In this document: positions 3,574 to 23,993 of the stretch, in pieces | How the letters are laid out: the number at the start of each line of letters is the position of its first letter | Position numbering within the stretch: position 1 is the first letter of the stretch | NCBI GenBank assembly: GCA_016931455.1 | Contig: JAFGES010000095.1 | Span: 12,487 to 76,486 of the forward strand | DNA: 64,000 bases | Reading direction: 5' to 3' | Source: Desulfobacterales bacterium | GTDB lineage: Bacteria; Desulfobacterota; Desulfobacteria; Desulfobacterales; JAHDSC01 | Made by a program: the position numbers and the translations under genes | The notes under the pieces: generated by a model | Seen by the model: the letters and a program-made list of their open reading frames with translations, nothing else | Database searches by the model: none | What the model was told of the DNA's origin: nothing

Positions 3574-5850
3574 ATGGTGGAAAAACCACTTGTTGTTGTC
3601 GAATCACCGACTAAGGTTAAGACGATTAAAAAATATCTGGGCAGAGATTATAATGTAGCGGCAACTGTCGGTCATATAAAAGATCTACCTACAAAAGAAA
3701 TGGGTATTGATGTCGAGGGAGGTTTTAAACCTCAGTATGAAAACATCCCAGGTAAACAGAAAGTTATATCGGCTTTAAAAAAAGCTGCGGGCAATGCTCT
3801 TGAGATTTACCTTGCTCCTGACCCTGATCGCGAAGGTGAAGCAATTGCATGGCATACCGCAGAGGTTTTGAAAAAAAAAGGGAGAAGATTCCACCGAGTC
3901 CTTTTTCATGAACTCACGGAAAAAGCCATTAATGAAGCAATTATTGCCCCGTTGACTCTCGACCGGCATAAATATGAAGCTCAGCAGGCGCGTAGAATTC
4001 TGGATAGACTGGTAGGATACCAAATATCTCCTTTGCTGTGGCGCAAAGTAAAACGCGGTCTTAGCGCAGGGCGAGTACAATCTGTTGCCGTAAGGATCAT
4101 CTGTGAACGAGAACGGGCCATACAGGCATTTGAGCCGGAGGAATACTGGTCCATAACCGCTTATCTGGAAAGTGATTCTCCTCCCCCATTTACAGCAAAA
4201 TTGGCGAAAAAGAACGGGAAAAAGATTAAGATTCCCGATCAAAATAGCGTTGATGCTATTTTAAATGAGTTGTTGAAAAATGACTTGGTAGTTGAAAAAG
4301 TCATTAAAAAAACGATAAGAAGAAACCCTTTACCTCCTTTTACGACAAGTAAACTTCAGCAGGAGGCAATTCGGAAATTAAAATTTTCCGCTAAAAAGAC
4401 AATGATTGTGGCTCAACAGCTTTATGAAGGCATTGAATTGGGACCGGGTGGACCCGTTGGCCTTATTACTTATATGCGGACGGATTCCACACGAATTGCA
4501 AATGAAGCGGCGGAAGAGGCTTATCGATTGATTCAAGAACATTTCGGGCAGAACTATGCGCTCGAAAAACCAAGATTCTTCAAAAACCGCAAAAAGGTCC
4601 AAGATGCGCATGAAGCTATTCGACCAACATCGGTGTTTAATACTCCTGAAAAGGTTGCACCTTATCTTGCCAAGGAACAGTTGAATTTATATCGTCTCAT
4701 TTGGCAGCGGTTTGTTGCATCTCAGATGGCTCAAGCCTTAATTGATCAGGTTGTAGTATCAATCAAGGCAGGGGCTTATTTATTCAATGCTAGCGGATCA
4801 TCTCTCAAATTTCCTGGTTTTATGAGGCTTTACCTATCTGCCGATCAAGAAATTGAAAGTGAAAATAGAAAAGACAATCTTCCTGAACTTTCGATAGGCA
4901 TGCAGCTAAAACTTAATCGTTATGAACCGAAACAACATTTTACCACCCCACCCCCCAGATTTTCAGAGGCATCCTTGGTAAAAGAGCTGGAAGAAAATGG
5001 AATCGGCCGTCCTAGTACATATGCCGCCATCCTATCGAATATTAGGGGAAAAGGTTATGTGGATCTTATAAAAGGATATTTTAGACCGAGTGAGCTGGGA
5101 TTTATTGTTAACGATCTGTTGGTAAAGAATTTTCCGGATATACTTGATGTTGATTTTACTTCAAAGATGGAGGATGATTTAGATCGTCTAGAGTCCGGCG
5201 ATATTGATTCTTTAAATGTTATCAGCCGATTGTATAATCCTTTTAAAAAAGAATTAGACGCTGCATCAGAAGGCATGTTAAGCATAAAGGGTGTAGGCTT
5301 CCCGACAGATCTTGTATGCCCGGTATGTAATGGGCGGCTTCATATTAAAGTGGGTAAAAATGGACCCTTTCTCGCATGCAACGGCTATCCGGAATGTACC
5401 TACACACGCGATTATATCCGTGATGAAAAAGGCAATGTTCAACCGATCGAATCATCTTATGATGAAATTTCAGACCATAATTGTACAAAATGCGGTCGGC
5501 CGATGGTTATTAAGCAGGGAAGATATGGCGCCTTTCTAGCTTGTAGCGGTTATCCGGACTGCAAGAATACTCAATCACTCAATTTAAATGAAACGTCTCA
5601 GGAAACTGGTGTAGATTGCCCCGAGGAAAGTTGTGGCGGTAAATTGGTTCAAAAAAAATCCAAGCGAGGAAAAATATTTTATGGGTGTAGCCGGTTCCCG
5701 GATTGTAAATTTGCAGTTTGGGATAAGCCGGTCCCAAAAGAATGCCCCATTTGTGGGGCTAAATTCCTCGTAGAAAAAAAGACCAAAAAGGACGGCACAG
5801 TTATAACCTGCTTGACAAAAGAATGTGGATTTAGAGAAATCCCAGATTAA
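3574..5850 (+). CDS. topA: DNA topoisomerase I with C-terminal Zn-ribbon repeats
   Basis: Toprim N-terminus (LVVVESPTKVKTIKKYLG), active-site region (GLITYMRTDS) and four CxxC...C C-terminal zinc-finger repeats. Confidence 0.95.
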   Translation: MVEKPLVVVESPTKVKTIKKYLGRDYNVAATVGHIKDLPTKEMGIDVEGGFKPQYENIPGKQKVISALKKAAGNALEIYLAPDPDREGEAIAWHTAEVLKKKGRRFHRVLFHELTEKAINEAIIAPLTLDRHKYEAQQARRILDRLVGYQISPLLWRKVKRGLSAGRVQSVAVRIICERERAIQAFEPEEYWSITAYLESDSPPPFTAKLAKKNGKKIKIPDQNSVDAILNELLKNDLVVEKVIKKTIRRNPLPPFTTSKLQQEAIRKLKFSAKKTMIVAQQLYEGIELGPGGPVGLITYMRTDSTRIANEAAEEAYRLIQEHFGQNYALEKPRFFKNRKKVQDAHEAIRPTSVFNTPEKVAPYLAKEQLNLYRLIWQRFVASQMAQALIDQVVVSIKAGAYLFNASGSSLKFPGFMRLYLSADQEIESENRKDNLPELSIGMQLKLNRYEPKQHFTTPPPRFSEASLVKELEENGIGRPSTYAAILSNIRGKGYVDLIKGYFRPSELGFIVNDLLVKNFPDILDVDFTSKMEDDLDRLESGDIDSLNVISRLYNPFKKELDAASEGMLSIKGVGFPTDLVCPVCNGRLHIKVGKNGPFLACNGYPECTYTRDYIRDEKGNVQPIESSYDEISDHNCTKCGRPMVIKQGRYGAFLACSGYPDCKNTQSLNLNETSQETGVDCPEESCGGKLVQKKSKRGKIFYGCSRFPDCKFAVWDKPVPKECPICGAKFLVEKKTKKDGTVITCLTKECGFREIPD

Positions 5851-10902: not shown

Positions 10903-11985
10903 TTATTTCGAACCCTCACGTAAAACCGTACCCGCAATAGCTTCAAGCGGTAGAATCCGTTTAACCGCTTCTCGTTTAATTGCCTCATGAGGCATTCCAA
11001 ATACGACACAAGATGCTTCATCTTGAGCAATGGTAAAAGCACCGGCTTCCTTCATTTCAAGTAAGCCACGGGCACCATCATCTCCCATGCCAGTCAGGAT
11101 GACTCCCACTGCATTGGAACCTGCATAGCGGGCAGCCGACCGAAAAAGGACATCAACCGAGGGTCGATGCCTGCAAACCAAAGGGCCTTCTTTGATTTCG
11201 ACATAATATCTTGCTCCGGATCGTTTCAAAAGTATATGCCGATTTCCCGGCCCGATAAGTGCTTGACCGCGCAGAACCCTATCCTCATTCGCTGCTTCTT
11301 TGACCTCAATCTGACATAGATCGTTAATTCGTTTTGCAAAGGCCTTTGTAAAATTTTCCGGCATATGCTGAACAATTACAATGCCCGGACTGTCATGGGG
11401 AAGAGCTTCCAAAAGCAGACGTAACGCTTCCGTTCCACCTGTAGATGCGCCGACAACGACAATTCGATCCGTTGTACGTGCCATCGCTTTTCCAGTAGGC
11501 GGGGCTATAACTGCATCAGCCGTTAGTTTTTTAGTTATTTTGTTCCGTTTGTAAGAAATCGGTTTAACACGCGCCTTTGCCGCGGCTTTAACAGCATCAC
11601 AGATACGTATCTGTGATTCTTGAAAGAAATTTTTAACATCGACTCGGGGTTTTTGAATGATATCGACCGCACCATACTCCAGAGCTTTGAGGGTGGTTTC
11701 ACATCCCTTTTCGGTAAGGCTTGAACACATCACCACGGGTATCGGATGTTGAGACATGATTCGTTTCAGAAAAGTAATGCCGTCCATACGTGGCATTTCT
11801 ACATCAAGAGTGATAACATCAGGTATCTCATTTTTAATTTTATGGGCTGCGATAAACGGATCTGTTGCTGTCGCCATTACTTCGACTTCGGGATCTGATG
11901 ATAGAATTTGTTCTAGAGTCTGACGAACAACCGCTGAATCATCTACGATCAAGACTTTGATTTTTCTCTTCATTTTATAATTCAT
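10903..11985 (-). CDS. cheB: Protein-glutamate methylesterase CheB (receiver + esterase)
   Basis: N-terminal receiver (VLIVDDS, LDVEMP). C-terminal methylesterase ([18 protein letters not shown]). Confidence 0.95.
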
Positions 11986-13004: not shown

Positions 13005-13535
13005 CTATGCCGCATTTTCAGAAAGCATTATTTCTGAGTCGGTTTCCGAATTATTTTCGATTATCTGCGCGGCGGTGTATTCATTCGCCGTAAGGATACG
13101 ATCGATATCGAGAATAATTAGAAATTTTTCATCTTGTTTGCCCATACCCTTAATAAATTCATTTTTGAGTTTGGTTCCTATCCGCGGTGCTGGTGCGATT
13201 TGAGCCGGGTCAAGATCGATGACTTCTTTCACCGAATCGGCCAGAGCCCCCATCTGCATGATTTCGCCATCCATTTCGATTTCAACGATTACAATACAGG
13301 TATCAACTGTTTTCTGAATAGCACTCATGCCGAGTTTAAGCCGTAAGTCAATTACCGGTACGACATTGCCGCGCAGGTTGATAACGCCCCTGAGATACTC
13401 CGGCATGCGGGGTACTTTCGTGATGGTGGTATAGTCGAGTACCTCTCGCACCTTTGCAATTTCAAGTGCAAAATCCTCTTGACCCAGAGTAAATGTAAAA
13501 TATTGAGTTGCTTTGGTTATTTCGCCTGAACTCAT
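13005..13535 (-). CDS. cheW: Chemotaxis coupling protein CheW (second copy)
   Basis: 176-aa CheW domain (YFTFTLGQEDFALEIAKVREV ... GVINLRGNVVPVIDLR). Confidence 0.85.
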   Translation of the reverse strand: MSSGEITKATQYFTFTLGQEDFALEIAKVREVLDYTTITKVPRMPEYLRGVINLRGNVVPVIDLRLKLGMSAIQKTVDTCIVIVEIEMDGEIMQMGALADSVKEVIDLDPAQIAPAPRIGTKLKNEFIKGMGKQDEKFLIILDIDRILTANEYTAAQIIENNSETDSEIMLSENAA

Positions 13536-13645: not shown

Positions 13646-16462
13646 CTAGAAGCGTTCAAATTCATTATCATCATGGTCACTTAAATCCAAAGCAACTCCT
13701 TGTTCCGATGCTGCTGCTGCTGATGTGTAGGTTTTCTTGAACGTGTGTTTCGGCGCTGGTTTATTAGGTGCTGCGCCCGAATGCCTGACTTTTTTCAAAC
13801 CACCGTTAATCGCTTGAAAGGCTCGTTTTGACTGACGATGAATTGATTTTTGGTGTGATTGGTTATCAACTTTGAAAAATTCGGCTGTATTTTTAAGTTG
13901 CTCGGCTTGGCCGGAGAGTTCTTCGCTGGTGGAAGCCATTTCTTCGGTCGCGCTGGCATTTTGCTGAATTACCTGATCTAATTGTTCGATGGCCTTTGTA
14001 ATCTGCTGAATTCCATCGGCTTGTTCGGCGCTGGATGCATTGATTTCCATTACCAGTTCAGCGTTTTTCTGGATAGCCGGTACCATATCTGATATCAGCA
14101 TGCCCGCTTTTTCGGCAATTTCAACACTAGTGCTGGACAAATTACCAATCTCCTGTGCAGCAGTTTGGCTGCGTTCAGCCAATTTGCGAACCTCAGATGC
14201 AACGACCGCAAAACCTTTGCCGTGTTCGCCGGCACGAGCCGCTTCAATGGCTGCGTTAAGTGCCAGCATGTTTGTCTGGCGAGCAATTTCTTCGATGATG
14301 CCGATCTTAGCGGCAATACTCTTCATGGCCTGAACGGTTTCGGTTACGGATGCCCCGCCTTTTTTTGCATCTTCAGCTGCTTTTTCAGCAATTGATGCGG
14401 TTTCTTTCGCATTATCGGCGTTTTGGGTAACGGTGCTGTTCATTTCCTCCATCGAACTGGAGACCTCTTCGACACTTGCAGATTGTTCGGTGGCTCCTTG
14501 TGACATTTGCTGGGCGGCGGAGCTGATTTGCTGGCTGCCGGAGGCAACCTGCTCGGCTGCGGTTTGTACGTTTACTGCAATTGAGGTAAGTTCTTTAACC
14601 ATCTTCTGTAATGCTTCCATGAGCATATCTTGCTCGGACCTCTTTTCGACTTTGACCATGAGGTTTCCATCGGCAATTTCCTGGGAAAGTGCGACTACGT
14701 CGTTTGTGTTTTCCATCATCTGGATCAATGACGGCATAATTTTATCGTTTTCCGAGCGTCGACCGATTTTTTTATATTCCGCTAAATCCTTCAGGTCACC
14801 TACTGCGATGTTGTTCACCGTATCGGTTATATGCAGAAGAACATCTCTGACATGATTGACAGCCTCTCCCACTTCGGCAAAGAGTCCTTCGTATTGGCCC
14901 TTTATGCTTTTTGTATGGTCGTTTACCGCCATTCGTTGAAGAACGGCATTGGCTTCGACCAGGCCTCCAAGTCCGTCAATACATTGATTGATATTGTTTT
15001 TGATTTCGTTAAAGTCACCTTTGTACTCATCTGTAATTTTATCAGGAATATCGCCTTTACTGATGCGGTCTACGTACTCCGCTGCTACATTAAGCGGTCC
15101 GATCACCGCATCCAGTGTGTCGTTGACGCCTTTGACGATTTTGGCATAGTCACCAGCGAAACTGGTCGCATCGCCGCGGATATCGAGTTTGCCTTCAACG
15201 GCAGCCTGAGTTAAAGTATTGATCTCATCTCCCAAGCCCTTAATATTTTCCATCATTTCGATGATAGCCGGAATAATTTTATCGTTTTCGGAACGTCTGC
15301 CGATTTCTTTATAATTTGCTAAATCACTTAAGTCACCGACGGCAATATCATTTACTGTATCCGTGATGTGCAGCAGTCTCTGCCTGACATCGTTTGTCGC
15401 TTTTCCAACTTCGGCAAAGATCCCTTCATATTGTCCTTCGACCTTCATTGTATGGTCATTAACGGCCATTCGCTGGAGAACGGCATTAGCTTCGACCAAA
15501 CCTCCAAGCCCGTCAATACACTGATTGATATTATTTTTGATTTCGTTAAAGTCACCTTTGTACTCATCTATTATTTTTTCGGGAATATCCCCCTTGCTGA
15601 TCCGATCCACATATTCGGCCGCTACATTCAGGGGGCCGATTACCGCATCCAGTGTTTCATTAACACCTTGTACAACTTTACCGAAATCACCACTAAACTT
15701 GGAAGCATCTGCTCTTATATCCAACTTGCCTTCAAGCGCTTCCTGGGTTAACCCGTTGATTTCATCCCCCAATCCCTTGATTGTTTCCATCATTTCAATA
15801 TAAGCGGATACGATTTTATCGTTATCGGACAATCGGGCCTTGCCACCGCCGATTTGCCTGTAAGCTTCTAAATCACTGAGATCCCCTTGCGCAATTTTGT
15901 TAGCCGTAATTGTCACTTGCAGCAGCACACGCCGGACAAGGTTTATGGCCTTTCCAATTTCACCATAGATCCCCGTATATTTGCCTTGCATTTTCATTGT
16001 GTGATCGTTAAAGGCCATGCGTTGCAAAACGGAATTGGCTTCCACAAGTCCTTGGAGGGAGTCAATACAGTCATTAATACTGTTTTCAGTATCATTCAGA
16101 GCGCCTTTATATTCAGCTGTAATTTTTTTTGGGATATCGCCTTGGGTAATACACTCAATAAATTCTTTAGCAGTTTCCAAAGGGTTGGTTACGGTATCAA
16201 TTATTTGATTGATACCTTCAAGTATTTCTCTTTCCGTACCACTTGTGTCGCGGCAATCTGCACGGGCATCCAACTGCCCGGCCATAATGGCTTCAAGCAA
16301 TCTATTAAATTCTTTGAGCATACTTTTACTCCTCATTTTTCCATTAGAATTATTTAATTTTTTTTCATTCGCTATGGTTTGAATTTCTTCTTCTACAGGC
16401 GGCCCTTTTGCAGATGAAGGAAAAGTTTCTTCTTTAATGTTTTTAGCTTTTTTGCCTGCCAT
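13646..16462 (-). CDS. Soluble methyl-accepting chemotaxis protein with three tandem sensor-like repeats
   Basis: Canonical MCP tip ([35 protein letters not shown]). I could find no hydrophobic transmembrane segment. Three 179-183-aa repeats span aa 58-598. C-terminus reads EFERF. Confidence 0.9.
14669..16291 (-). repeat. Intragenic tandem repeat, 3 units of about 537 nt
   Basis: Protein repeats lie at aa 58-240, 241-419 and 420-598. Units 2 and 3 are near-identical over long stretches ([61 protein letters not shown]). The 127-aa antisense shadow ORFs at 14831 and 15368 are offset by exactly 537 nt. Confidence 0.9.
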
Positions 16463-16577
16463 TACTTACCCTCCATTTTTCAATTTGTTGGAATAAATAT
16501 GATTTCCGTTATAAATTCATTTGCTTATCGTTTCTGACGATAATTGATAAGAGTTTTAAATGATTCAAGATAGATAT

Positions 16578-17177
16578 TTATTTTTTTAGTCCCTTTCTTG
16601 CATTGTTTAATGATGTGTAGAGTGTTTTTTTTAAATTGCCTTGTAAGGGCTTTCCATGCCCGCAATAGATTGATTGAATATTTTTGCAGCAAAGCTTTTC
16701 CATCGCACGAACAAAACCGGTTTCATAAGTGCCGCCGGGCGTCTTGATAAAAATAGGGGTGTCACCTGAGAACAGGACACCTTCTTTATCACAGTAAAGA
16801 CATATAGAATCGATGCTGTGACCTGGTGTATGGTGGACTTCAAATATTCTGTCGCCGATTTTTAAAGTTTCTTTATCTTTCAATCGGCAGTCAACCCCCT
16901 CTAGTGAAGCAGAAAAAGCATAAATGACAGGATTAAAAGCTTTTTTGATTTGAGGTAAAAGACCGGTGTGGTCATAATGACTATGAGTTAGAATAACCTG
17001 ATCTATTTTATGTTTGCCGACACCTGTTGGAATATTATTAATTTTTTCAATCACCGATGGATCCCGGCCGACGTCTATTAGGGTGTTCACATCTCCAAAG
17101 GCATTCCATGTGCCGGTAATCAGATAAACATTGGAAGTATAGATCTTACTGTCTGTGGTAAGATTTAATATTTTCAA
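16578..17177 (-). CDS. Metallo-beta-lactamase-fold hydrolase (199 aa)
   Basis: HxHxDH motif (LTHSHYDHTG) with downstream His and Asp ligands (HHTPGHS, CGH). Lies 12 nt downstream of the short cheR-like gene. Confidence 0.8.
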   Translation of the reverse strand: MKILNLTTDSKIYTSNVYLITGTWNAFGDVNTLIDVGRDPSVIEKINNIPTGVGKHKIDQVILTHSHYDHTGLLPQIKKAFNPVIYAFSASLEGVDCRLKDKETLKIGDRIFEVHHTPGHSIDSICLYCDKEGVLFSGDTPIFIKTPGGTYETGFVRAMEKLCCKNIQSIYCGHGKPLQGNLKKTLYTSLNNARKGLKK

Positions 17178-17189
17178 ACAACGATTCCT

Positions 17190-17795
17190 TTATTCAAGTT
17201 TTTGGAAAACCTGTGCATTCGAAACGATGGGGTCGAACATTGTCTGAACCTGGCCCGGCAATTTTTGAGTCTGTTCCATTACAAAAAAACCACCGTCTAC
17301 AAGTGAATCATGGAACATTTTTATAACCTTGATCCGTTGTTCCAGTTGAAAGTGTAGAAGTACGTTTTTACAAATAATCAGGTCAAAATTTTTTCTCACA
17401 GGTCTGAGCGTCAATAGATCGTGTTTCTGAAATGTGATACACTTGCGGATTTCTGTAACCACTCTAAAATGATCGGGTTTGTCGGTGGGCTCAAAGTATT
17501 TGGTGAAAATATCTTTTGGAATCCTTGCAACTTGATTTTTGGGATATAAACCGTTTTTTATAATTTCTCCGAATAGGTTGCTACCGTCAATATCCGTGCT
17601 ATAAATTTTAACGTTTCTAAAAATCATTTTGCCCATATTTTCCCGTAAAATCATAGCAATCGAATAAGGTTCCGGTCCCATGGCACATCCCGCATCCCAA
17701 ATGTTGATGTACCGACGAGCTCTCAAAGATGGAATAATATGGTCACGAATCATATCCAAGGTTTGCATGTCTCTGAAAAAATAGGTAAAAGCCAT
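17190..17795 (-). CDS. CheR-type SAM-dependent methyltransferase, catalytic domain only
   Basis: FFRD...IWDAGCAMGPEPYSIAM and ICKNVLLHF match the CheR SAM-binding domain. The roughly 80-aa N-terminal helical domain present in the CheR at 11986-12861 is absent. Confidence 0.75.
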   Translation of the reverse strand: MAFTYFFRDMQTLDMIRDHIIPSLRARRYINIWDAGCAMGPEPYSIAMILRENMGKMIFRNVKIYSTDIDGSNLFGEIIKNGLYPKNQVARIPKDIFTKYFEPTDKPDHFRVVTEIRKCITFQKHDLLTLRPVRKNFDLIICKNVLLHFQLEQRIKVIKMFHDSLVDGGFFVMEQTQKLPGQVQTMFDPIVSNAQVFQKLE

Positions 17796-17816
17796 CTATA
17801 TGTTTCTATTTTCCAC

Positions 17817-19967
17817 TTAATTTATTTTAGAAGTAAGTGCTCTTGCTTCTTCCTGTTCAGCACATCGGATAACTTTAATTGCATCAAGAATAAGCGCTAT
17901 ACCGCCATCGCCAAGAATGGTCGCACCGGAGATCCCTTCGGCGTCAGCGTATATTCTTCCAAGGGACTTGATAACGGTTTGGTGATCACCCATTATTTCA
18001 TCAACAACAATGCCGAATCGCTGATTTTCAAGTCTAACAATGGCAATATGTTCTCGACCCGGTCTATCGCCGAGTATATTAAATATCTCTCGTAAGCGAA
18101 CATATGGAATCCATTCACCCCTTACATCTATCATATATCGGTTGTGAGCCTTAGTAAGATCGTTTTGTGAAAGTTCGACACATTCTTCCACCATGGAAAG
18201 AGGCAAAACGAATCGGTTTGTATTTACTTTCACTAGAAGGCCGTCGATTATGGCAAGTGTCAGCGGCAAGTTGATGGTAATGGTCGTGCCGCAGCCTTGT
18301 TTACTAGAAATTTCAATCGTTCCACGCATTGCATCAATTTCACGTTTTACTACATCCATTCCAACTCCCCGGCCTGAAATACTAGTAACATTTTGGGCGG
18401 TTGAAAAACCGGGTTCAAAGATCAGGTTAAGAATTTCGTTTTCATCTAAATCCGAATCGGATTGAATCAATCCTTTTTCAATTGCTTTGGCTTTGATGGT
18501 TTCAAGTTTGATGCCGGCACCATCATCAGAAACGGTAATAACGACGCTGGCCCCAACATGTGCAGCGCTTAAGCAAATCTTTCCTCGGCGTGATTTACCG
18601 ATGGCCTTACGGTTTTCCGGCGCTTCTATTCCATGATCAATACTGTTGCGTATTAAGTGAACCAGTGGATCATTGAGGCTTTCTATGATAGTTTTATCCA
18701 GCTCGGTATCTCCGCCCTCCGTCACCAAATCAATCTCTTTTTGCAGCTCAATAGACAGGTCACGTACAAGTCGCTTAAATGTGCTGAAAGTCGTTCCAAT
18801 GGGCAGCATCCGAATATTGAGAACACAATCTCGCAGTTCACTTGTTAGACGCTCAATTTCTTCAGCCGTGTTATTTAATTCGGCAGCATTTACTTCTGAA
18901 GTAATCTGAGTAAGCCTTGCCTGAGTAATGACTAATTCTCCAACAAGATTGATAAGTCGATCAAGTCGTTCAGCAGGTACCCGTACACCGGCGACTTTGG
19001 GAGTCTTTTTTTGTCTCTTGAGGAATTGTTGCTCGGTTAGTGCGGATTTTATTTTTTCTTTCGATACGCTTCCGGACTCGATCAATAAATTACCGATTGG
19101 TTTTTGGCCGGCAAGCACCTCGTTTAACTCAAGCAGAGTGACGTCTCCCCGATCAACCAGTATTTCACCTATCCGTTTGTGTGCTACATTCAAATTGGTT
19201 TTAAAATCCGCAATTTCTTGTATTGAAATGTCACTATCCTCTTGAATAAAAATAAAAACGTCTTTAATCGCATTAATATCTTTTTCTGTTGTGAGTATGA
19301 TATCCCAGAAAAGGTAGCAATTTTCAGGAATTAAGTTTAAAAGTACCGGAATTTCTTCCGTTTGGGATATTATTGCACATTCGCCAAGACTGCGCAGTTC
19401 ATCTAAAATTAAGATAGGATCCATTCCGGATGCAAAAATACCGGCTTCAGGATTAAATCTGATTCGATAGGTATGATCACTTTTTTCTTTATGATCCAAC
19501 TGGATATATTTGTTCTCTTCTATTGAAGGAATCGAAACCGGATTAGCCTGAGTGGGTAAAAGAGCTTTCAAATCAGAGATGATTTTTTGAGAATTCAAAT
19601 TATTTTCCGAACTTTTTAAGGTTATTTTTTTCCCTTCTACGGATTGAAGCATGGTGCTGATCTCATCCCGTGCTCTGAGAATTAAATCAATGAGTTCTTG
19701 ACTAATGGGTATGGTTCCGTCTCTGACTTTATCCAGCACAGTTTCGACGTGATGGGTAAAAGCGGCGATCTCATCAAATCCAAACATAGCACCTGAACCT
19801 TTGATGGTATGTATAGCACGAAATAGACGGTTAATCGTTTCAGCATCATCAGGATTCTTCTCAAGATCCAATACGGTTTCTTCAATATCTTGGAGAAGCT
19901 CTTCTGCCTCCTGGCGGTAAGCATTACTATGATCATTTGATTCGTTCATCATTGCATATTCCTTCAA
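17817..19967 (-). CDS. cheA: Chemotaxis-type histidine kinase CheA (module 2)
   Basis: Hpt (AIHTIKGSGAMFG), P3 region, HATPase (NSIDHGIE, DDGAGI, GRGVGMDVV) and a C-terminal CheW-like domain. Confidence 0.9.
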   Translation of the reverse strand: MKEYAMMNESNDHSNAYRQEAEELLQDIEETVLDLEKNPDDAETINRLFRAIHTIKGSGAMFGFDEIAAFTHHVETVLDKVRDGTIPISQELIDLILRARDEISTMLQSVEGKKITLKSSENNLNSQKIISDLKALLPTQANPVSIPSIEENKYIQLDHKEKSDHTYRIRFNPEAGIFASGMDPILILDELRSLGECAIISQTEEIPVLLNLIPENCYLFWDIILTTEKDINAIKDVFIFIQEDSDISIQEIADFKTNLNVAHKRIGEILVDRGDVTLLELNEVLAGQKPIGNLLIESGSVSKEKIKSALTEQQFLKRQKKTPKVAGVRVPAERLDRLINLVGELVITQARLTQITSEVNAAELNNTAEEIERLTSELRDCVLNIRMLPIGTTFSTFKRLVRDLSIELQKEIDLVTEGGDTELDKTIIESLNDPLVHLIRNSIDHGIEAPENRKAIGKSRRGKICLSAAHVGASVVITVSDDGAGIKLETIKAKAIEKGLIQSDSDLDENEILNLIFEPGFSTAQNVTSISGRGVGMDVVKREIDAMRGTIEISSKQGCGTTITINLPLTLAIIDGLLVKVNTNRFVLPLSMVEECVELSQNDLTKAHNRYMIDVRGEWIPYVRLREIFNILGDRPGREHIAIVRLENQRFGIVVDEIMGDHQTVIKSLGRIYADAEGISGATILGDGGIALILDAIKVIRCAEQEEARALTSKIN

Positions 19968-19977
19968 TTCGCCCGGT

Positions 19978-20343
19978 TCAACGAAGCACTTTTTTAATTA
20001 CTGCCAACAGTTGTTCAGGATTAAAAGGTTTGACGATCCATCCTGTGGCACCGGCAGCCTTACCTTCCGCCTTTTTTTCTTCTTGGGATTCGGTTGTCAG
20101 CATGATAATGGGCATGAATTTATATCGGGATTCAGCGCGAACCTTCTTAATTAATCCAATTCCATCTAAATTCGGCATATTAAGATCGGTTATCAACATA
20201 TTTACCTGATTAGCAGTGAGCTTATTTAAAGCATCTTGCCCATCCACCGATTCTAAAACATCGTAACCCGCCTGCTTCAGGGTGAAGCTGACCATTTGCC
20301 TGACACTGGCCGAGTCATCGACTGTCAAGATTACTTTTGACAT
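19978..20343 (-). CDS. cheY: CheY-like single-domain response regulator (module 2)
   Basis: Receiver residues are present (TVDDS, ITDLNMP, LTTES, VKPF). Confidence 0.85.
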   Translation of the reverse strand: MSKVILTVDDSASVRQMVSFTLKQAGYDVLESVDGQDALNKLTANQVNMLITDLNMPNLDGIGLIKKVRAESRYKFMPIIMLTTESQEEKKAEGKAAGATGWIVKPFNPEQLLAVIKKVLR

Positions 20344-20354
20344 TTGGCGCCTCT

Positions 20355-20660
20355 TTAAACAAAGTTTAATGTATTTTCAGTATCTAGACCAATAAGGGAT
20401 GCAGCCTCATAAAAGCATTTGGAAACATTGGTGATTTTTAAAGTTTTACCTGTTTGCTTTGCTGTTTTTTGAGCTGAACAAATAAGCTGAATTCCGGCCG
20501 TATCCAAATCGTTTGTGTTGCTGAGATCAAGGACCAAATCATTATAATTTTCAAAACACATCAGCAACTCATGTCGAAGGGAGGCAACCTCATATATGGT
20601 TAAAGCACCTTCGATTTTTAGGAGTGCTTGTTCGTTTTTTTCCTCTAATGTGAAACCCAT
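20355..20660 (-). CDS. STAS-domain protein (anti-sigma-factor-antagonist fold)
   Basis: 101 aa with SpoIIAA/RsbV-like layout (LKIEGALTIYEVASLRHELL ... LVLDLSNTNDLDTAGIQLI ... LKITNVS). Confidence 0.75.
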   Translation of the reverse strand: MGFTLEEKNEQALLKIEGALTIYEVASLRHELLMCFENYNDLVLDLSNTNDLDTAGIQLICSAQKTAKQTGKTLKITNVSKCFYEAASLIGLDTENTLNFV

Positions 20661-20822
20661 CAGTTCCCTCTTTTCCTATCTTTAAAATGTTGATGACAAA
20701 CTTCTGAAAAATTTTCATCGGTCATGATTATAATTTGGGTTATAAATGTGTGAACACAAGGTTCGTCCCTATTGGAAATCGGAGAGCCTTCATTCTACAA
20801 TTCATAATGGATAGGGCGCTGT

Positions 20823-22808
20823 TCAGAAGAGTTCAACGTTGTCTCCTAGGTCATCATCTTCTTGAGCATTTTCAAAAAGGGTCTTTGATTGCACGCCCGA
20901 ATTTCTATCTAAAGTATTTTTTGCTTTGGAGGATGTATGGCAGCAGTTTGTCTCATCCGACACCATTGATTCGTTTGTTTCTTTAAGTATTCGATTGTGG
21001 ATGCTGCGCTCACTTTGCATCGTGTATCTATGCGATGCGAGATCGATTTCATTTTGAATTTTCAAATCTTTTTGGGCCGACCATGTCTCTAACAACTTTG
21101 CCATCCCGTTGATCTGATTAAGGCATTTTTTCAGCCGGTCATTTAACTCAGTAAAAAAACAAAGATCCGATCTGATATGTTCTATTGTTTTCTTCACGGT
21201 ATATGACTGTTGCAGGGTTGTTGTAGAATTCATTCGTAACTTTTTGTAAGCTGTGGAAATTTGATCAATCCCAATCTGAAGGGGCGTTTTGGATTTTTTA
21301 TCTTTCGACATCTGTGTTCTTTTTTCCCAAGACTGATTTTTTAAATTCCGGGCCAAAGCATTGATCGATTGGAGAATTTCCACTACTTGATTTACGAATA
21401 TCTCTGATTCATTTGAAATTTTTGTTACCTCTTGCGCAAGAACATCAAGTGTTTTGCCTTTATCATTTAAGTGTGCCGTCTTAACAATGGCATTTAGGGC
21501 TTTAAGGTGAAGATCTATACTGATTCCGCGAACTTGATTGACATATTGCGAAAGATGGGATGCGGTTTTGGATGTTTGTATCGCGGTTTGAATCATTTGA
21601 CAGCCAAGCTCGTTTCCTTGAATACTTAGTTGATCGAGATGTTCAAGGTTGGCTTTTAGCGTTTTAAGCGGTATTTCGATTTGACTTTTTGTGGTTCCCT
21701 GAAGGGTTTGTGCCGACATGTTGTTTGCCAGTAAGTCGGCTTCACTCTCAATATCTTCAAATGCGGAATTTATTTTTTGATGTGCCCCATTGATTTCAGC
21801 GATAACATGTTCTAATTGAGCTGCTTGGAGACTTAAAATTGAATATGCTCGACCTAAAACAGCATCCGGATCGAGGTTAGGGATTTTTTCATTACAAATA
21901 CTTTCCAAATCCCGGAGAGATGACACAATATGCTCGATCTTTTGTTTAGCGATGTCTTGGAATTGGATTGCCATCACGATTTCGCTGATCTGATTCGAAA
22001 TGTTTTGTGAATGGAAACCGGCCTTTTTGAATACTTCCACCAAGAGCTCCATAAGATGGGATATTTCACGGATTGAATTTTTTACAGTCTTATCGGCATC
22101 ATCCTTGAGTTTGCATAAATGGGCGATGCCTTCGGATACCTGATTGTGGGCCAGCATCTGATGAGATCGTTCCGAATAGGCGTGATCACGGATGTTTTGC
22201 GAAATTTCAAGAATATTTATGGTAATCTCTCTGATTTCTTGAATAAAAACTGTGAACATTTTTAAAGATTGCCTTGAGCGTGAGCTTTCAACCGCAATAT
22301 TAAAGCCGATGACATTAAGTGACATGGCTGTTTTTTCAATTATTTTGCATAGGTTATATAAATTTTTTAGATGTTCCGAACCATCCTTTATGCTTTGCAT
22401 GCAATTTGATAATCGGGATTCACAGCTCTGAAGTTCGGATAGAGCCTCTCCGACAATTCCTGAGATATTGTTCAAAATATTATCTTCAGATTTCCCACCC
22501 AGCATTTGTGCGGTTTCAACTGTTTGTCGGGCCAATTCATGACTATCGGAATAAACGGATTGGAGATCTTGACCGAGCTGCAAAAATTTTGGTTCGGCAT
22601 GTTTAATGCTTGCTTGAAGAAAGTCAATAAGCTCCGGCAGCTTAGATGATGTTTCATCAATTAAGGGGAATGCTTTATTGAAAGCAAAAAAAAATTTATT
22701 TTTTCTACGATTCCGGGGAAAAATATGGAATTTTTTTCTTATCTTTAACTTAGTATAATTTGTAAGCCAATTCACCATAATCTCCATCAAACGATTTGTA
22801 TTTTTCAA
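20823..22808 (-). CDS. Cytoplasmic MCP-like protein with two degenerate signalling-tip motifs
   Basis: aa 164-196 (LNVIGFNIAVESSRSRQSLKMFTVFIQEIREIT) and aa 435-465 (LKALNAIVKTAHLNDKGKTLDVLAQEVTKIS) both align position-by-position with the MCP tip [30 protein letters not shown]. An IQFQDIAKQKIEHI motif follows the first. No transmembrane segment. Start is uncertain (TTG at 22808 or ATG at 22787). Confidence 0.55.
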   Translation of the reverse strand: MKNTNRLMEIMVNWLTNYTKLKIRKKFHIFPRNRRKNKFFFAFNKAFPLIDETSSKLPELIDFLQASIKHAEPKFLQLGQDLQSVYSDSHELARQTVETAQMLGGKSEDNILNNISGIVGEALSELQSCESRLSNCMQSIKDGSEHLKNLYNLCKIIEKTAMSLNVIGFNIAVESSRSRQSLKMFTVFIQEIREITINILEISQNIRDHAYSERSHQMLAHNQVSEGIAHLCKLKDDADKTVKNSIREISHLMELLVEVFKKAGFHSQNISNQISEIVMAIQFQDIAKQKIEHIVSSLRDLESICNEKIPNLDPDAVLGRAYSILSLQAAQLEHVIAEINGAHQKINSAFEDIESEADLLANNMSAQTLQGTTKSQIEIPLKTLKANLEHLDQLSIQGNELGCQMIQTAIQTSKTASHLSQYVNQVRGISIDLHLKALNAIVKTAHLNDKGKTLDVLAQEVTKISNESEIFVNQVVEILQSINALARNLKNQSWEKRTQMSKDKKSKTPLQIGIDQISTAYKKLRMNSTTTLQQSYTVKKTIEHIRSDLCFFTELNDRLKKCLNQINGMAKLLETWSAQKDLKIQNEIDLASHRYTMQSERSIHNRILKETNESMVSDETNCCHTSSKAKNTLDRNSGVQSKTLFENAQEDDDLGDNVELF

Positions 22809-22837
22809 GACCGCTTTAACCCCATTTTAAACAGCTG

Positions 22838-22872
22838 ATTCATAATTATATTTTATACTGAATTCATAATTA
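22838..22872. repeat. 11-nt perfect direct repeat ATTCATAATTA x2 upstream of the receptor-like gene
   Basis: Copies lie at 22838-22848 and 22862-22872, 24 nt start-to-start. Each is preceded by TGA. They sit 30-65 nt upstream of the putative start. Confidence 0.35.
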
Positions 22873-23150
22873 CTTTTATCGGCCTGATGTTTTTTTTCTT
22901 TAATGATATAAGTAAAATACATTGTGACCGTAAAATTTTAACAATAAAAAAGCCAAAACCTTTTGCAATCTGGCTGAATCGAATTATATTTTATGCAGTT
23001 TTCAATTATTGCAATTTTGTATATTGTTTTTACAAAGTTTTGGTCATATCAGGATGGCGATATAAAATGGGGGACTTTTGAGATAAACTGATATATGTGT
23101 CAAGCTTTAGACTGCTGACATATAGTAGTGGGATTAAAGGAATTATATTT

Positions 23151-23993
23151 ATGATATTTGGTAAATACGAATGCTTTTCATTAGAGGTCGGCAGTTTTGC
23201 TTTAGATGGGGGAGCAATGTTCGGTATTGTGCCGAAAGTATTGTGGGAAAAGAAAATAAGCGCAGATGATCAAAATCGTATTCGATTGAAGTCTAGATCC
23301 CTTTTAATTAAAGGGAAAACAAGAAATATACTTATTGATACCGGTTTGGGGAGTAAATTGCCTTCGAAAATTAAAAAATTATATTCCGTCGATGATAACT
23401 CCGTTAAGATCGAACGATCATTATCAAAACATGGATTAAGCCTTAGTGATATTACCGATGTTGTTTTGACCCATCTTCATTTTGATCATGCAGGCGGATC
23501 TACACTTATCAAAAACGGTAAAGTTGTTCCGACGTTTCCGACTGCTAGACATTATGTGCAAAAAGACCAGTGGGCGGCGGCGATTAACCCTTCTTTAAGA
23601 GATAAAGCAAGTTATCGTAGAGAGGATTTTATTCCTCTCATGGAATCAAATCTTTTGGAGCTTGTTGATGGACCGACTGAACTGTTTCAAGGTATAGAAC
23701 TTATGGTAACAAATGGGCATACGCCTGGACAGCAGCATCCACTTATCAAAGGTAAAGATAGTTCACTTTTTTACTGTGCCGATCTTATCCCAACTTCCGC
23801 TCATCTTCCCATACTTTGGCATATGGCTTTTGATCATCTTTCCTCAACGATCATAAAAGAAAAAGAAAAAATTTTTATCAGAGCTTTGAAAGAAAATTGG
23901 GTTCTATTTTTTGAACATGATCCCAATTTTCCCGCCGCCCGAATTAAAACCGATAATAACAAGCTAAAGATTGATGAAGTGGTTTGGATTTGA
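23151..23993 (+). CDS. Metallo-beta-lactamase-fold hydrolase (lactonase-like HLHFDHAGG motif)
   Basis: VLTHLHFDHAGG plus downstream HTPGH. The ATG at 23151 has AAAGGAA 9 nt upstream, so I prefer it to the GTG at 23097. Confidence 0.75.
   Translation: MIFGKYECFSLEVGSFALDGGAMFGIVPKVLWEKKISADDQNRIRLKSRSLLIKGKTRNILIDTGLGSKLPSKIKKLYSVDDNSVKIERSLSKHGLSLSDITDVVLTHLHFDHAGGSTLIKNGKVVPTFPTARHYVQKDQWAAAINPSLRDKASYRREDFIPLMESNLLELVDGPTELFQGIELMVTNGHTPGQQHPLIKGKDSSLFYCADLIPTSAHLPILWHMAFDHLSSTIIKEKEKIFIRALKENWVLFFEHDPNFPAARIKTDNNKLKIDEVVWI

Follow-up and report, generated by a model that had tools for sequence, protein, structure and literature searches.

A cytoplasmic chemosensory gene cluster in a Desulfobacterales genome and its recurrent pair of a short CheR and a metallo-beta-lactamase-fold hydrolase

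The window analysed here is a 64,000-nt stretch of a Desulfobacterales contig. The sequence-only reading had described six minus-strand genes between 16578 and 22808, and all six ORFs were confirmed at these coordinates. Their domains, their intergenic gaps (12, 21, 10, 11 and 162 nt, from the coordinates), the Thr54 of the STAS protein, the HxHxDH motif of the metallo-beta-lactamase-fold (MBL) protein and the lack of a CheR_N domain in the short CheR (CheRs) were likewise reproduced by ORF calling, Pfam and translation. Together the six genes make up the 5' portion (upstream third) of a 15-gene co-directional cluster running from 22808 to 5864, in which the MBL gene is followed on the same strand by genes for an MCP, CheW, CheR, CheB, CheW, CheX, CheY, CheA and an HDOD protein. 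The features are as follows.

20823..22808, minus strand: double-hairpin, DosM-like, putative MCP-like scaffold protein (Pfam MCPsignal, 42 bits, two stretches)
20727..20754, minus strand: promoter-like site TTCACA-16-TATAAT (11/12), within the 162-nt receptor-STAS gap
20355..20660, minus strand: STAS-only protein, 101 aa, CheS-like by position (STAS_2, 4.5e-14)
19978..20343, minus strand: CheY-type single-domain response regulator, 121 aa (Response_reg, 6.1e-27)
17817..19967, minus strand: CheA1, 716 aa (Hpt, H-kinase_dim, HATPase_c and CheW domains, Pfam)
19029..19175, minus strand: two tandem MshEN-like 24-residue motifs (regex), CheA1 aa 265-313, between P1 and P3
17190..17795, minus strand: CheRs, 201 aa, CheR C-terminal SAM-binding domain (CheR, 1.3e-44)
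16578..17177, minus strand: small glyoxalase-II-like MBL-fold hydrolase, 199 aa, the CheRs partner (Lactamase_B, 4.7e-20)
13646..16462, minus strand: soluble poly-HAMP MCP, 938 aa, three HAMP_2 units (HAMP_2, 2.7e-89; MCPsignal, 2e-32)
13005-13535, minus strand: CheW (Pfam)
11986-12861, minus strand: full CheR (Pfam)
10903-11985, minus strand: CheB (Pfam)
10352-10843, minus strand: second CheW (Pfam)
9702-10223, minus strand: CheX (Pfam)
9282-9665, minus strand: CheY (Pfam)
7083-9260, minus strand: CheA2 (Pfam)
5864-6946, minus strand: HDOD protein (Pfam)
5744..5759, minus strand: terminator-like hairpin after the HDOD gene (consensus match only), likely the end of the transcription unit

The site after the HDOD gene was the sole terminator-like site found in the consensus scan, and a search of the 115-nt gap between the MBL and MCP genes found none. 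Spacing and these weak consensus scans suggest that the cluster may be co-transcribed. The promoter-like site upstream of the STAS gene was the best in the region, but the total number of such sites was below the shuffle mean, so it is weak evidence. Separate genes for CheW, CheB, CheD, CheX and CheZ are indeed missing between 16578 and 22808; the absence of CheW and CheB, which had been taken as a property of the system, is nevertheless a boundary artefact, because both genes, and also CheX, follow downstream of the point where the boundary was drawn.

Three modules make up the cluster. Module A, from 22808 down to 17817, consists of the double-hairpin MCP-like protein, STAS, CheY and CheA1. 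Module B, from 17795 down to 16578, is a tight two-gene cassette of CheRs and MBL. Module C is the downstream conventional operon MCP-CheW-CheR-CheB-CheW-CheX-CheY-CheA2-HDOD, whose first gene encodes the poly-HAMP receptor. The arrangement recurs in unrelated genomes and is thus beyond chance.

Counted from the earliest possible TTG start, the double-hairpin protein is 661 aa long, and its database copy, P0121, begins 11 aa later. It has no sensor domain, and a scan for TM-like windows found none. The earlier description of a double-tip receptor was borne out: a locally built MCP-signalling HMM matched at aa 121-305 and 410-547, and the AlphaFold (AF2) model (pLDDT 80.5) contains two helical hairpins with arms of ~130 residues. 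Four features were located within this gene.

22275..22283, minus strand: hairpin 1 tip, ORF aa 176-178, in NIAVESSRS (model turn at P0121 aa 165-167; family consensus MSLNVVGLNIAVESSRS)
21924..21980, minus strand: CheZ-like motif IVMAIQFQDIAKQKIEHIV, ORF aa 277-295 (family conservation)
21468..21470, minus strand: hairpin 2 tip, ORF aa 447, in ALNAIVKTAHLNDKG (model turn at P0121 aa 436)
20826..20858, minus strand: acidic C-terminal tail, ending DDDLGDNVELF (near-invariant short linear motif)

In a PDB profile search, the hairpin 2 tip region was aligned with MCP tips (2ch7 at 1.2e-11). Within the CheZ-like motif, Q282, D285 and Q289 are invariant (50/50 family members) and H293 is kept in 49/50, and a regex for the motif, run over 873,879 aa, matched this family only. 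The motif falls on CheZ D143/Q147 in hhalign (E 0.004-0.036), while Pfam CheZ matched the window protein at 1.3e-4, below the cut-off, and gave a match in 15 of 50 family members. These alignments weakly suggest that the invariant DxxxQ motif is CheZ-like. The motif of the acidic tail, repeated in some family members, resembles the CheZ C-terminus DDLLDSLGF. In CheR-binding pentapeptides an aromatic residue is expected at position 2, which this tail does not have.

The CheY encoded at 19978..20343 has D9, D10, D53, T82 and K104, as read from the sequence. CheA1 shares only 39% identity with the window's own CheA2 and clusters with the receptor/STAS-linked CheAs of loci L014, L035, L091 and L092 (48-53% identity); CheA2 groups with CheAs flanking CheW-CheRs-MBL-polyHAMP in Syntrophomonas, Ignavibacteriales and Desulfobacula. 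NCBIfam NF053729 scored 28.4 bits on CheA1 against a cut-off of 38; MshEN-CheA fusions have been reported (PMC5013675). The receptor-STAS-CheY-CheA core was found in five Desulfobacterota genomes, namely the window, L014 (a Desulfobacteraceae MAG), L035 (a Desulfonatronospira MAG), L091 (Desulfonema limicola) and L092. CheRs-MBL comes after the core in the first three, so the six-gene order is conserved in L014 and L035 as had been supposed. In L091 the core is followed by CheW-CheB-CheD and in L092 by MCP-CheW-CheR, and CheRs-MBL was found with quite different partners, without the core, in ~40 other species-level genomes. The six genes are therefore not one unit.

In CheRs, Pfam found no CheR_N domain, and the 21 nt between CheRs and the CheA stop codon leave no space for one. 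The window protein begins MAFTYFFRD, and nearly all of the 51 distinct family members (from 54 ORFs) begin M[AG][FLA]T[YF]FFRD. About 75 of 30,402 CheR-domain clusters reached E<1e-30, most of them of the ~200-aa type and matching from residue 1; the nearest PDB entry was 5ftw, over residues 69-234. The cofactor site is intact. With its SAM motifs and R98 equivalent kept, CheRs looks like an active enzyme. H125, K143, H148, E174 and Q177 are invariant and family-specific, and the equivalent of Y235 is His in 98% of the family. Y235 (E. coli numbering) is listed as essential for receptor methylation (PMC7666581). Given this His and the missing receptor-docking N-domain, CheRs may have no methylating activity on receptor glutamates. 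The metal site of MBL is intact as well: H65xH67xD69H70, H120, D139 and H174, all seven metal ligands, are invariant across the family. The AF2 model (pLDDT 91.2) gave 1xm8, 7ev5, 4ad9 and 2xf4 as best Foldseek matches, at ~22% identity. From its complete ligands and confident glyoxalase-II-like predicted fold, MBL also looks active.

The pairing of a methyltransferase with a hydrolase, pointed out already from the sequence, holds in nearly every genome having this MBL. CheRs lies directly upstream of MBL on the same strand at 48 of 51 MBL-family loci, while at control loci with other MBLs a CheR was found in 0/40. Most gaps fall between -4 and +100 nt and others reach ~650 nt, with a 4-bp overlap in twelve loci; in L014 the gap is ~840 nt, with a third gene in between. 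Pairwise identities of the two proteins correlate (Pearson 0.75, 820 locus pairs), and a search for CheRs-MBL or CheRs-MCP domain fusions found none. The hosts include methanogens, ANME-2, Syntrophomonas, Spirochaetota, Desulfobacterota and others, and the window's CheRs and MBL are nearest to proteins of a Methanosarcinales MAG (70%), above those of other Desulfobacterales. The usual neighbour is a poly-HAMP MCP, located <=3 kb from the pair at 28/47 pair-bearing loci, and a CheW is found within that distance at 20/47 (controls 0/40 for each). The poly-HAMP MCP of the window ends in a pentapeptide-like EFERF, and a TM window scan of it found none. At five loci (L005, L021, L030, L037, L045) the pair is orphaned: the surrounding 4-10 kb carry no signalling genes. 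Canonical CheB and full-length CheR share a cluster with the pair here and at 11 other loci. MBL had been proposed to replace CheB, but this frequent co-occurrence indicates that it is an addition to it.

The best overall explanation, which we hold tentatively and at slightly under an even chance, is one large gene cluster for cytoplasmic chemosensing, put together from three modules that have each had their own evolutionary history, in which CheRs and MBL form a methylate-and-hydrolyse pair. We infer all contacts between the proteins. By analogy with DosM, the double-hairpin protein would scaffold the receptor array, to which the soluble poly-HAMP receptor would provide sensory input. The STAS protein would most likely bind CheA1 and tune phosphotransfer towards or away from the neighbouring CheY, in the manner of a phosphate-sink control. 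CheRs-MBL, an undescribed accessory pair present in Bacteria and Archaea, would be a mobile, tightly coupled cassette: CheRs a probable SAM-dependent methyltransferase that no longer has the N-domain for receptor docking or the loop that binds pentapeptides in canonical CheR, and MBL a predicted catalytically intact binuclear metallo-hydrolase. The two would serve as a second receptor-modification pair, CheRs methylating and MBL hydrolysing on a chemosensory target, of which the adjacent poly-HAMP receptor is the likeliest candidate. The pair would act parallel to canonical CheR and CheB, free of CheA feedback because MBL has no receiver domain. We know of no MBL-fold enzyme that is a protein methylesterase.

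CheRs and MBL could instead be ligand sensors feeding the array rather than a writer-eraser pair, which is unlikely but a serious contender: CheRs would report SAM/SAH and MBL metal, oxygen or redox state, with the neighbouring CheW and the poly-HAMP receptor as the signal route. This would fit the conserved cysteines C126 and C129 of MBL, the weak or faint Pfam ODP matches in many MBL family members, the Y to H replacement in CheRs, which removes one of two residues described as methylation-essential, and the named hosts, all from lineages that we take to be anaerobe-dominated. There are two chemotaxis precedents, namely Treponema CheWS, with a CheR-like domain as SAM sensor (PMC10653840), and ODP, an MBL-fold di-iron protein of chemotaxis systems (PMC7666581). 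However, CheWS has R to W and Y to F changes, whereas CheRs retains the catalytic Arg, and its active site is surrounded by a set of invariant polar residues. With Pfam ODP the window MBL scores 21.5, below the cut-off of 27.2, and its motif is the hydrolase-type HxHxDH, not the HxExDH of the flavodiiron/ODP type. The receptor-distant orphan pairs suit a sensor no better than an enzyme.

It is decidedly improbable that the pair is a housekeeping or detoxification system for a small molecule, in which a carboxylate or thiol is methylated and the (thio)ester hydrolysed, and the link to chemotaxis genes is loose, through co-regulation or gene hitch-hiking. Orphan pairs do lie amid unrelated genes in Myxococcota, Bacteriovoracaceae, Methanomicrobiales and a 7.3-Mb genome, the structures nearest to MBL belong to glyoxalase II and similar enzymes that hydrolyse small molecules, and an extra methyltransferase-like gene sits within the cassette at some loci. 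However, CheRs belongs specifically to the CheR family, with receptor methyltransferases as nearest sequence relatives, and a poly-HAMP MCP or CheW is adjacent at ~60% of loci, in Bacteria and Archaea alike, against 0/40 controls.

It is quite improbable that Module A simply belongs to F9, the chemosensory class to which Vibrio cholerae cluster I is assigned and which is marked by DosM. DosM is described as sensor-less, with a tandem pair of signalling domains (PMC7534058, PMC9321776), and the double-hairpin protein is like it in having two signalling hairpins and no sensor domain, a likeness of architecture only. Unlike the F9 class, the cluster has no concatenated triple-CheW protein, the signature of that class; both of its CheWs are single-domain (176 and 163 aa), and triple CheW was found in none of the related loci. 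Moreover, the named ones among the 73 members of the double-hairpin family are all Desulfobacterota, and their signalling domains are very divergent.

The STAS protein was aligned with eight other STAS proteins of che clusters, including those of Aeromonas and Xanthomonas. Eight of the nine are encoded directly upstream of cheA, as are the closest relatives in an independent (plasmid) collection, and a STAS gene next to cheA is a widespread feature of ordinary che clusters. Thr54 lies in DLDTAG (nt 20499-20501, by translation), presumably where SpoIIAA, included in the alignment, has its phosphorylated Ser. The sequence-only reading had regarded the six genes as a self-contained alternative-cellular-function pathway with a partner-switching output and MBL in place of CheB; Thr54, the shared order in L014 and L035 and the coupling of MBL to a CheR-type methyltransferase at 48/51 loci speak for this, but it is very improbable, because the two halves occur independently, CheB and full-length CheR are in the cluster, D[TS]AG is kept in most but not all of the aligned proteins (Leu in L035 and Ala in Xanthomonas at the Thr/Ser position), RsbW-type kinase, PP2C phosphatase and sigma factor genes are absent, as that reading had itself noted, among the window's 55 largest non-overlapping ORFs and also among the called genes beside the STAS gene in L009, L010, L091 and L092, and no test that was run argued for an alternative-cellular-function output. 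A STAS-driven sigma-factor partner switch would thus be unlikely. A closer parallel is the Sinorhizobium operon order icpA-cheS-cheY1-cheA, to which the window order of soluble MCP-STAS-CheY-CheA corresponds, with the STAS gene in the slot of CheS. A defined mechanism for STAS-containing clusters, which the sequence-only reading had named as a point against itself, is in part available through this order and precedent: CheS, which likewise consists of STAS only, binds to CheA and has a modulating effect on CheY1 phosphotransfer (PMC12654446).

The six minus-strand genes between 16578 and 22808 were recovered by ORF listing and Pfam with the coordinates, domains and gaps that the sequence-only reading had given them. 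The features of the cluster are as follows:

16578-17177, minus strand: metallo-beta-lactamase (MBL)-fold protein, 199 aa (ORF listing and Pfam)
17190-17795, minus strand: short CheR (CheRs), 201 aa, SAM-binding CheR domain without CheR_N (ORF listing and Pfam)
17817-19967, minus strand: CheA, called CheA1 (ORF listing and Pfam)
19978-20343, minus strand: CheY (ORF listing and Pfam)
20355-20660, minus strand: STAS-only protein with Thr54 in DLDTAG (ORF listing and Pfam)
20823-22808, minus strand: MCP-like double-hairpin receptor, 661 aa, two weak MCPsignal stretches (Pfam)
13646-16462, minus strand: poly-HAMP MCP, 115 nt past the MBL gene on the same strand
5864-6946, minus strand: HDOD-domain protein with an N-terminal zinc ribbon, last gene of the cluster, after CheA2
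5759-5744: terminator-like hairpin 3' of the HDOD gene (consensus scan)

From the MBL gene to the receptor gene the intergenic gaps are 12, 21, 10, 11 and 162 nt. Downstream of the poly-HAMP MCP follow CheW, a full-length CheR, CheB, CheW, CheX, CheY, a second CheA (CheA2) and the HDOD protein, ending at 5864; we know of no function for HDOD proteins. A consensus scan found no terminator-like hairpin in the 115-nt gap between the MBL and poly-HAMP MCP genes. The promoter and terminator scans returned no more sites than in shuffled sequence, and the operon structure is therefore one that we infer. Rfam matched nothing in the whole window, and 16400-23200, searched with permissive settings, likewise gave no riboswitch or other RNA. 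The remainder of the window carries housekeeping genes (secF, dprA, topA, ilv/leu, trp, lon, fusA and others). The six-gene set is a real and conserved feature, but it had been wrongly bounded and in part misinterpreted. The lack of CheW and CheB holds within 16578-22808, but both are encoded directly downstream on the same strand, and they seemed to be missing only because of where the boundary of the set was drawn. The architecture of the cluster is very probably modular.

The MBL family is highly conserved, the best 120 database matches (from Desulfobacterales, Methanosarcinales, Methanocalculus, Methanoculleaceae and Spirochaetota) being 57-69% identical to the window MBL. A CheR-domain-only gene of about 200 aa lay directly upstream of MBL in all five contexts examined first, and the two genes overlap by 4 bp in some loci. 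One genome per GTDB species was scanned with the MBL family alignment, which yielded 80 loci, and these were annotated with HMMs derived from the che proteins of the window. The family set (n=51) was made up of the window, the earlier loci and those loci whose MBL shares at least 41% identity with the query. CheRs was located upstream of MBL on the same strand in 48 of these 51 loci, whereas no CheR domain occurred within 10 kb in any of 40 control loci with other MBLs (at most 37% identity). The three exceptions were L033, with CheRs elsewhere in the cluster, L044, on a truncated contig, and L042, a true exception. A search for fusions among longer CheRs homologues revealed no CheRs-MBL fusion; these homologues were read-throughs, chimeras with MCP fragments, or carried a GNAT-like extension. 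No description of a CheR paired with an MBL was found in the searchable literature, although a mention in subscription papers is possible, and a search for poly-HAMP together with CheR did not return the cassette either. The CheRs-MBL cassette therefore appears not to have been described so far.

Cassette hosts among the Archaea include Methanosarcinales, ANME-2, Methanoregula, Methanospirillum and Methanogenium. The bacterial hosts, in a list that is not exhaustive, are Syntrophomonas, Acetobacterium, other Bacillota, Desulfobacteraceae, Desulfobacula, Desulfonatronospira, Spirochaetota, Bryobacteraceae, Bacteriovoracaceae, Ignavibacteriales and Myxococcota. The Syntrophomonas and Acetobacterium cassettes are MAG-derived, and at least one cultured methanogen carries the pair (Methanospirillum stamsii Pt1, L045; Methanosarcina sp. 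2.H.T.1A.6, L043). Pairwise identities of CheRs and of MBL were correlated over 820 locus pairs (Pearson 0.75), and both window proteins were closest to those of a Methanosarcinales MAG (L011, 70% each), compared with 48-66% for other Desulfobacterota. These facts suggest that the pair moves as a unit and, judged from sequence, that it has been transferred between domains of life.

Several variants of the cassette were seen. It is amplified in Methanocalculus as CheRs-MBL-CheRs-MBL (L007/L008, 5843-8612), while Methanosarcina and relatives have CheRs-CheRs-MBL (L038, L039, L043) and Methanospirillum has CheRs-MBL-MBL (L040, L041, L045, L046). A third small gene lies between CheRs and MBL in four of the 48 loci (L011 2821-3441, L049 7192-7716, L014 9360-9992 and, by spacing, L048), which belong to some Methanosarcinales, ANME-2 and Desulfobacteraceae. 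Its product of about 206-210 aa carries a GFVEIGCGLAIPSL motif like that of class-I methyltransferases and is without a Pfam match.

The CheRs of the window matched PF01739 (1.3e-44) with its SAM motifs intact. The claim that it lacks the N-terminal domain was borne out: PF03705 is absent, just 21 nt lie upstream, and the protein starts at the TxFFR motif. Nearly every member of the family begins with MAFTYFFRD. A library-wide HMMER search returned 30,402 CheR-domain clusters, of which only about 75 matched at E<1e-30, mostly proteins of about 200 aa matching from residue 1, and CheRs is thus a small, discrete subfamily. It has been reported that R98 and Y235 of Escherichia coli CheR (R79 and Y218 in Treponema denticola) are essential for receptor methylation (PMC7666581). 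In an alignment of 51 CheRs with nine full-length CheRs and E. coli CheR, the R98-equivalent arginine was kept in 100% of CheRs, the Y235 equivalent was His in 98%, and the R230 equivalent was Lys. R187 and the Gly-rich loop of the pentapeptide-binding beta-subdomain are absent. W33, A35, G36, C37, G40, E42, Y44, D68, C142, N144 and V145 are common to CheRs and full-length CheRs, while H125, E174 and Q177 are invariant and specific to CheRs. CheRs thus has the SAM-binding domain of a CheR protein-glutamate O-methyltransferase but not its CheR_N domain, and nearly all members keep just one of the two residues reported as essential.

The HxHxDH motif attributed to the MBL is present as HSHYDH, and all seven ligands of a binuclear site (H65, H67, D69, H70, H120, D139 and H174) are invariant in the family, which also has two conserved cysteines besides the metal ligands. 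Its predicted model is confident (pLDDT 91.2) and has the alpha-beta/beta-alpha fold; Foldseek matched it to 1xm8 at 2.3e-11. The best structural matches were glyoxalase II, BLEG-1, LACTB2, YcbL and GloB, at about 22% identity. Three known identities are not matched. A true hydroxyacylglutathione hydrolase is not indicated by TIGR03413 (63.8 bits against a cut-off of 200.8). Flavodiiron-type proteins carry the ligand motif HxExDH, and an ODP identity was discarded because HSHYDH is of the wrong type and PF19583 scored 21.5 bits, below its cut-off of 27.2. As for a CheB methylesterase, the 199-aa protein has no CheB_methylest domain and matches MBL families only.

At most 3 kb from the pair, a poly-HAMP (HAMP_2 array) MCP occurs in 28 of 47 pair-bearing loci and a CheW in 20 of 47, against none of the 40 controls in either case. 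Recurrent layouts are CheA-CheW-CheRs-MBL-polyHAMP MCP-CheR-CheB in Syntrophomonas, CheW-CheRs-MBL-polyHAMP MCP-CheR-CheB-CheW-CheY-STAS-CheA in Spirochaetota and MCP-CheW-CheRs-MBL in Methanosarcinales; in several genomes the cassette is an orphan amid unrelated genes. The poly-HAMP MCP of the window is soluble, lies directly downstream of MBL and ends in the pentapeptide-like EFERF after a long basic/acidic linker. Other bacterial cassette-linked poly-HAMP MCPs end in GFERY, DFGKY or EFEKY, and the archaeal ones are tailless. The full-length CheR of the window has an R187/Gly loop of E. coli length, which is typical of pentapeptide-dependent CheRs. In a local identity matrix, CheA2 was closer than CheA1 to the cassette-flanking CheAs of other phyla. 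In evolutionary terms, the cassette is tied to the downstream conventional operon no less than to the upstream genes. The N-terminal half of the window poly-HAMP MCP consists of two repeats of about 190 aa each.

For the function of the cassette, the most economical reading is that CheRs and MBL would act on chemosensory proteins as a second modification pair, one methylating and the other hydrolysing, with no feedback from CheA. It is inferred from the two obligately paired and apparently active enzymes, from the CheR catalytic core, and from the poly-HAMP receptor and CheW as usual neighbours. There are two main rivals. The pair may instead be a sensor pair, for which the SAM sensor CheWS and ODP are precedents, or a pair of enzymes acting on a small molecule. 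Least supported is the model of the sequence-only reading, in which MBL replaces CheB and the output is partner switching: a canonical CheB shares the locus with the cassette in 12 cases including the window, so that MBL supplements CheB and does not replace it, and no partner-switch enzymes lie near the STAS gene, whose relatives are CheA-adjacent.

The STAS protein is a single domain of 101 aa (STAS_2, 4.5e-14; STAS, 7.2e-11). In a plasmid collection, its nearest relatives come from che clusters of Aeromonas and Xanthomonas, where the STAS gene immediately precedes cheA; a STAS gene precedes cheA in Spirochaetota clusters too. The order soluble MCP-STAS-CheY-CheA found here is also that of the Sinorhizobium meliloti operon icpA-cheS-cheY1-cheA. 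Thr54 is present in DLDTAG, as had been noted, and in an alignment that includes a SpoIIAA sequence it falls at the SpoIIAA phosphorylation site; among che-linked STAS proteins Thr is common at this position but not universal, being replaced by Leu in L035 and by Ala in Xanthomonas. The window indeed encodes no RsbW-type kinase, PP2C phosphatase or sigma factor (0 of 55 ORFs), and no partner-switch genes were seen next to the STAS gene among the called genes of four related loci (L009, L010, L091, L092). In S. meliloti, CheS is reported to bind CheA and to promote both the binding and the dephosphorylation of CheY1 (PMC12654446). By analogy, the STAS gene is probably a member of the CheA-associated, CheS-like family and not part of a partner switch, and its product is predicted to bind CheA.

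MshEN-like motifs were observed in the CheAs. The MshEN c-di-GMP-binding criterion used was two 24-residue RLGxxhhxxGhhxxxxLxxxLxxQ motifs with a 5-residue spacer. CheA1 has tandem MshEN-like motifs, RIGEILVDRGDVTLLELNEVLAGQ then PIGNLLIESGSVSKEKIKSALTEQ, at aa 265-313 (19029-19175) between the Hpt and dimerisation domains; in these stretches (aa 265-288 and 290-313) the residue at position 11 is polar and a spacer of only 1 residue separates the two, and NF053729 scored 28.4 against a cut-off of 38. CheA2 also has an MshEN-like motif at aa 278-300 (about 8361-8429), and one or two copies occur in the same place in the CheAs of five related loci (L014, L035, L091, L001, L025) and of an Aeromonas plasmid. 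MshEN-CheA fusions have been mentioned in the literature (PMC5013675).

The MCPsignal homology expected of the receptor-like protein was found in its two weak stretches. They correspond in the AF2 model to two signalling hairpins with arms of about 130 residues each and tips near ORF aa 176-178 and 447; no TM segment or sensor domain was detected. The family has 73 detectable members, diverges quickly and is confined to Desulfobacterota wherever a host is named. The order receptor-STAS-CheY-CheA recurs in five genomes (the window, L014, L035, L091, L092), followed on the 3' side by CheRs-MBL in L014 and L035, by CheW-CheB-CheD in Desulfonema limicola (L091) and by MCP-CheW-CheR in L092. Since the core order is kept while the following genes differ, the four-gene core is the conserved unit. 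Just past the second hairpin, at about aa 595-604, the motif RYTMxSERxxH is conserved, each of Y, T, M, R and H being kept by at least 90% of the 50 members and E by all of them. An orphan member (L093, 9001-10998) has no che genes nearby; its neighbours are a T2SSE-type ATPase and two PilZ-domain proteins, a setting that hints at a link of the receptor family with c-di-GMP or pilus systems. A second, different MBL-fold protein of 298 aa is encoded at 23097-23993 on the plus strand, divergently from the receptor gene, and a homologue of it (38% identity, E 4e-51) adjoins the same orphan; this may be a second conserved association.

A motif (V/I)V(V/M)AIQF(H/Q)DIxRQxxEH was found at aa 277-295 of the receptor, with Q282, D285 and Q289 invariant among all 50 members. 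Whether compared with E. coli CheZ alone or with an alignment of CheZ from five species, it was placed by hhalign every time in register with MMAQDFQDLTGQ (D143/Q147), so that D285 and Q289 align to D143 and Q147, with E of 0.004-0.036 yet a probability of just 2-8%. Pfam CheZ matched this region in 15 of 50 members, all below the cut-off (window 22.4 against 30.7). Across six-frame ORFs totalling 873,879 residues, the pattern F[HQ]D[ILVSNA]xxQ had three matches, each of them in a double-hairpin protein; the 32 canonical MCPs had none. At the C-terminus, the near-invariant acidic tail DDLGDNVELF, repeated in some members, bears a resemblance, and a resemblance only, to the CheY-binding CheZ C-terminus DDLLDSLGF (DDLL[DAS]SLGF). 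A PDB profile search with the family and Foldseek on the receptor model returned MCPs and generic coiled coils only and no CheZ, and a profile of the central region against a 5.8-billion-protein database came back empty, family members included. We regard the putative CheZ-like site as a lead and not a result. Pentapeptide tethers for CheR/CheB have an aromatic residue at position 2; NVELF has none there and is less likely to be such a tether, whereas EFERF of the poly-HAMP MCP fits.

We regard the joint reading of the whole cluster as rather unlikely. According to it, CheRs-MBL would be an unrecognised, CheB-independent covalent-modification system of arrays, with MBL as a metallo-esterase eraser or as an obligate heterodimer partner replacing the lost N-domain; it would be dedicated to poly-HAMP receptors and exchanged as a cassette between methanogenic/ANME archaea and anaerobic bacteria. 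The Desulfobacterota double-hairpin receptor would, in addition, serve as the scaffold of the array and itself carry a CheZ-like phosphatase site for CheY-P and a tail that tethers CheY. To our knowledge, receptor adaptation in every characterised chemotaxis system relies on CheR and CheB, with CheD, CheC or CheV variants. A second widespread enzyme pair, if true, would add a new layer of receptor control, in which a metallo-hydrolase is combined with a CheR that has kept its catalytic core but not the parts that dock on receptors. Poly-HAMP receptors, which as far as we know are common in anaerobes and, except for Aer2, largely unstudied, would also become open to functional work for the first time. 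Should the CheZ-like site of the DosM-type scaffold prove real, signal termination would be tied to the architecture of the array. The modular dissection further corrects how such clusters are read, with STAS as a CheA-associated protein and the "missing" CheW and CheB downstream. Because the pair consists of two highly conserved genes of about 200 codons each and has a cultured host, the hypothesis is directly testable.

Among known systems, CheRs has the same SAM-binding domain as canonical CheR (E. coli/Salmonella, 1af7; Bacillus subtilis, 5ftw), 25-40% identical over 170-200 residues, but it is without the entire N-terminal helical domain, and its gene adjoins an MBL gene instead of CheB. 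T. denticola CheWS, a SAM/SAH sensor, is like CheRs derived from CheR, linked to chemotaxis and altered in catalytic residues. However, its CheR-like domain is fused to CheW, keeps the N-terminal subdomain, has lost both essential residues (R to W, Y to F) and is non-catalytic, whereas CheRs is free-standing, keeps the Arg and has a hydrolase partner. For MBL, the glyoxalase II-type hydrolases glyoxalase II, YcbL, GloB and BLEG-1 (1xm8, 7ev5, 2xf4, 7l0b) are closest in sequence and structure, with the same five metal-binding motifs and similar size, but identity is only about 22% and the TM-score 0.6-0.7. The MBL family is set apart by 45-70% identity between Archaea and Bacteria, by CheRs as partner and by its own invariant residues N5, L6, Y13, T14, N16 and C126. 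CheB likewise occupies the slot beside a CheR-type gene, and methyl esterification is in principle reversible by a hydrolase. The two proteins are unrelated in fold and chemistry, CheB using a Ser-His-Asp triad in an alpha/beta fold and MBL a binuclear metal site without a receiver domain, and a true CheB is encoded in the same cluster (10903-11985). ODP, the oxygen-binding di-iron protein of T. denticola and Thermotoga maritima, shares the MBL fold and the genetic coupling to a cytoplasmic chemoreceptor, but it is a sensor of flavodiiron descent, whereas the window MBL is of the hydrolase-type HxHxDH and nearest to glyoxalase II.

Like the window STAS protein, CheS of S. meliloti and Agrobacterium fabrum consists of a STAS domain alone (about 100 aa), and its gene likewise lies between that of a soluble MCP and cheY-cheA; both clusters have two CheY proteins. 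The likeness is one of position and description; the window differs in its Desulfobacterota host and in the double-hairpin receptor upstream. With CheZ, the CheY-P phosphatase, the receptor motif A-x-x-F-Q/H-D-x-x-x-Q can be aligned in register at E. coli D143/Q147; the receptor also has an acidic linker, and CheY is encoded two genes away, but CheZ is a 214-aa four-helix hairpin while the receptor motif sits in a 650-aa double MCP hairpin. DosM (VC1403) of the F9 system, Vibrio cholerae cluster I, has two tandem signalling domains (PMC7534058, PMC9321776). The corresponding F9 feature is present in the window as two MCPsignal-like segments and two AF2 hairpins, but F9 membership was rejected since the concatenated triple CheW (CheW3) is absent; the window CheWs, of 176 and 163 aa, are single-domain, and no multi-CheW ORF was found in related loci. 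By description, the likeness to DosM is one of architecture: both receptors are cytoplasmic with tandem hairpins and no sensor domain, and each is in a che cluster beside another soluble receptor. Unlike the DosM cluster, the window cluster is without a triple-CheW partner, and the window receptor belongs to a family restricted to Desulfobacterota with highly divergent signalling domains (E 1e-5 to 1e-10, against 1e-50 for canonical MCPs with the same HMM). The family also carries an invariant CheZ-like motif and an acidic tail ending in NVELF.
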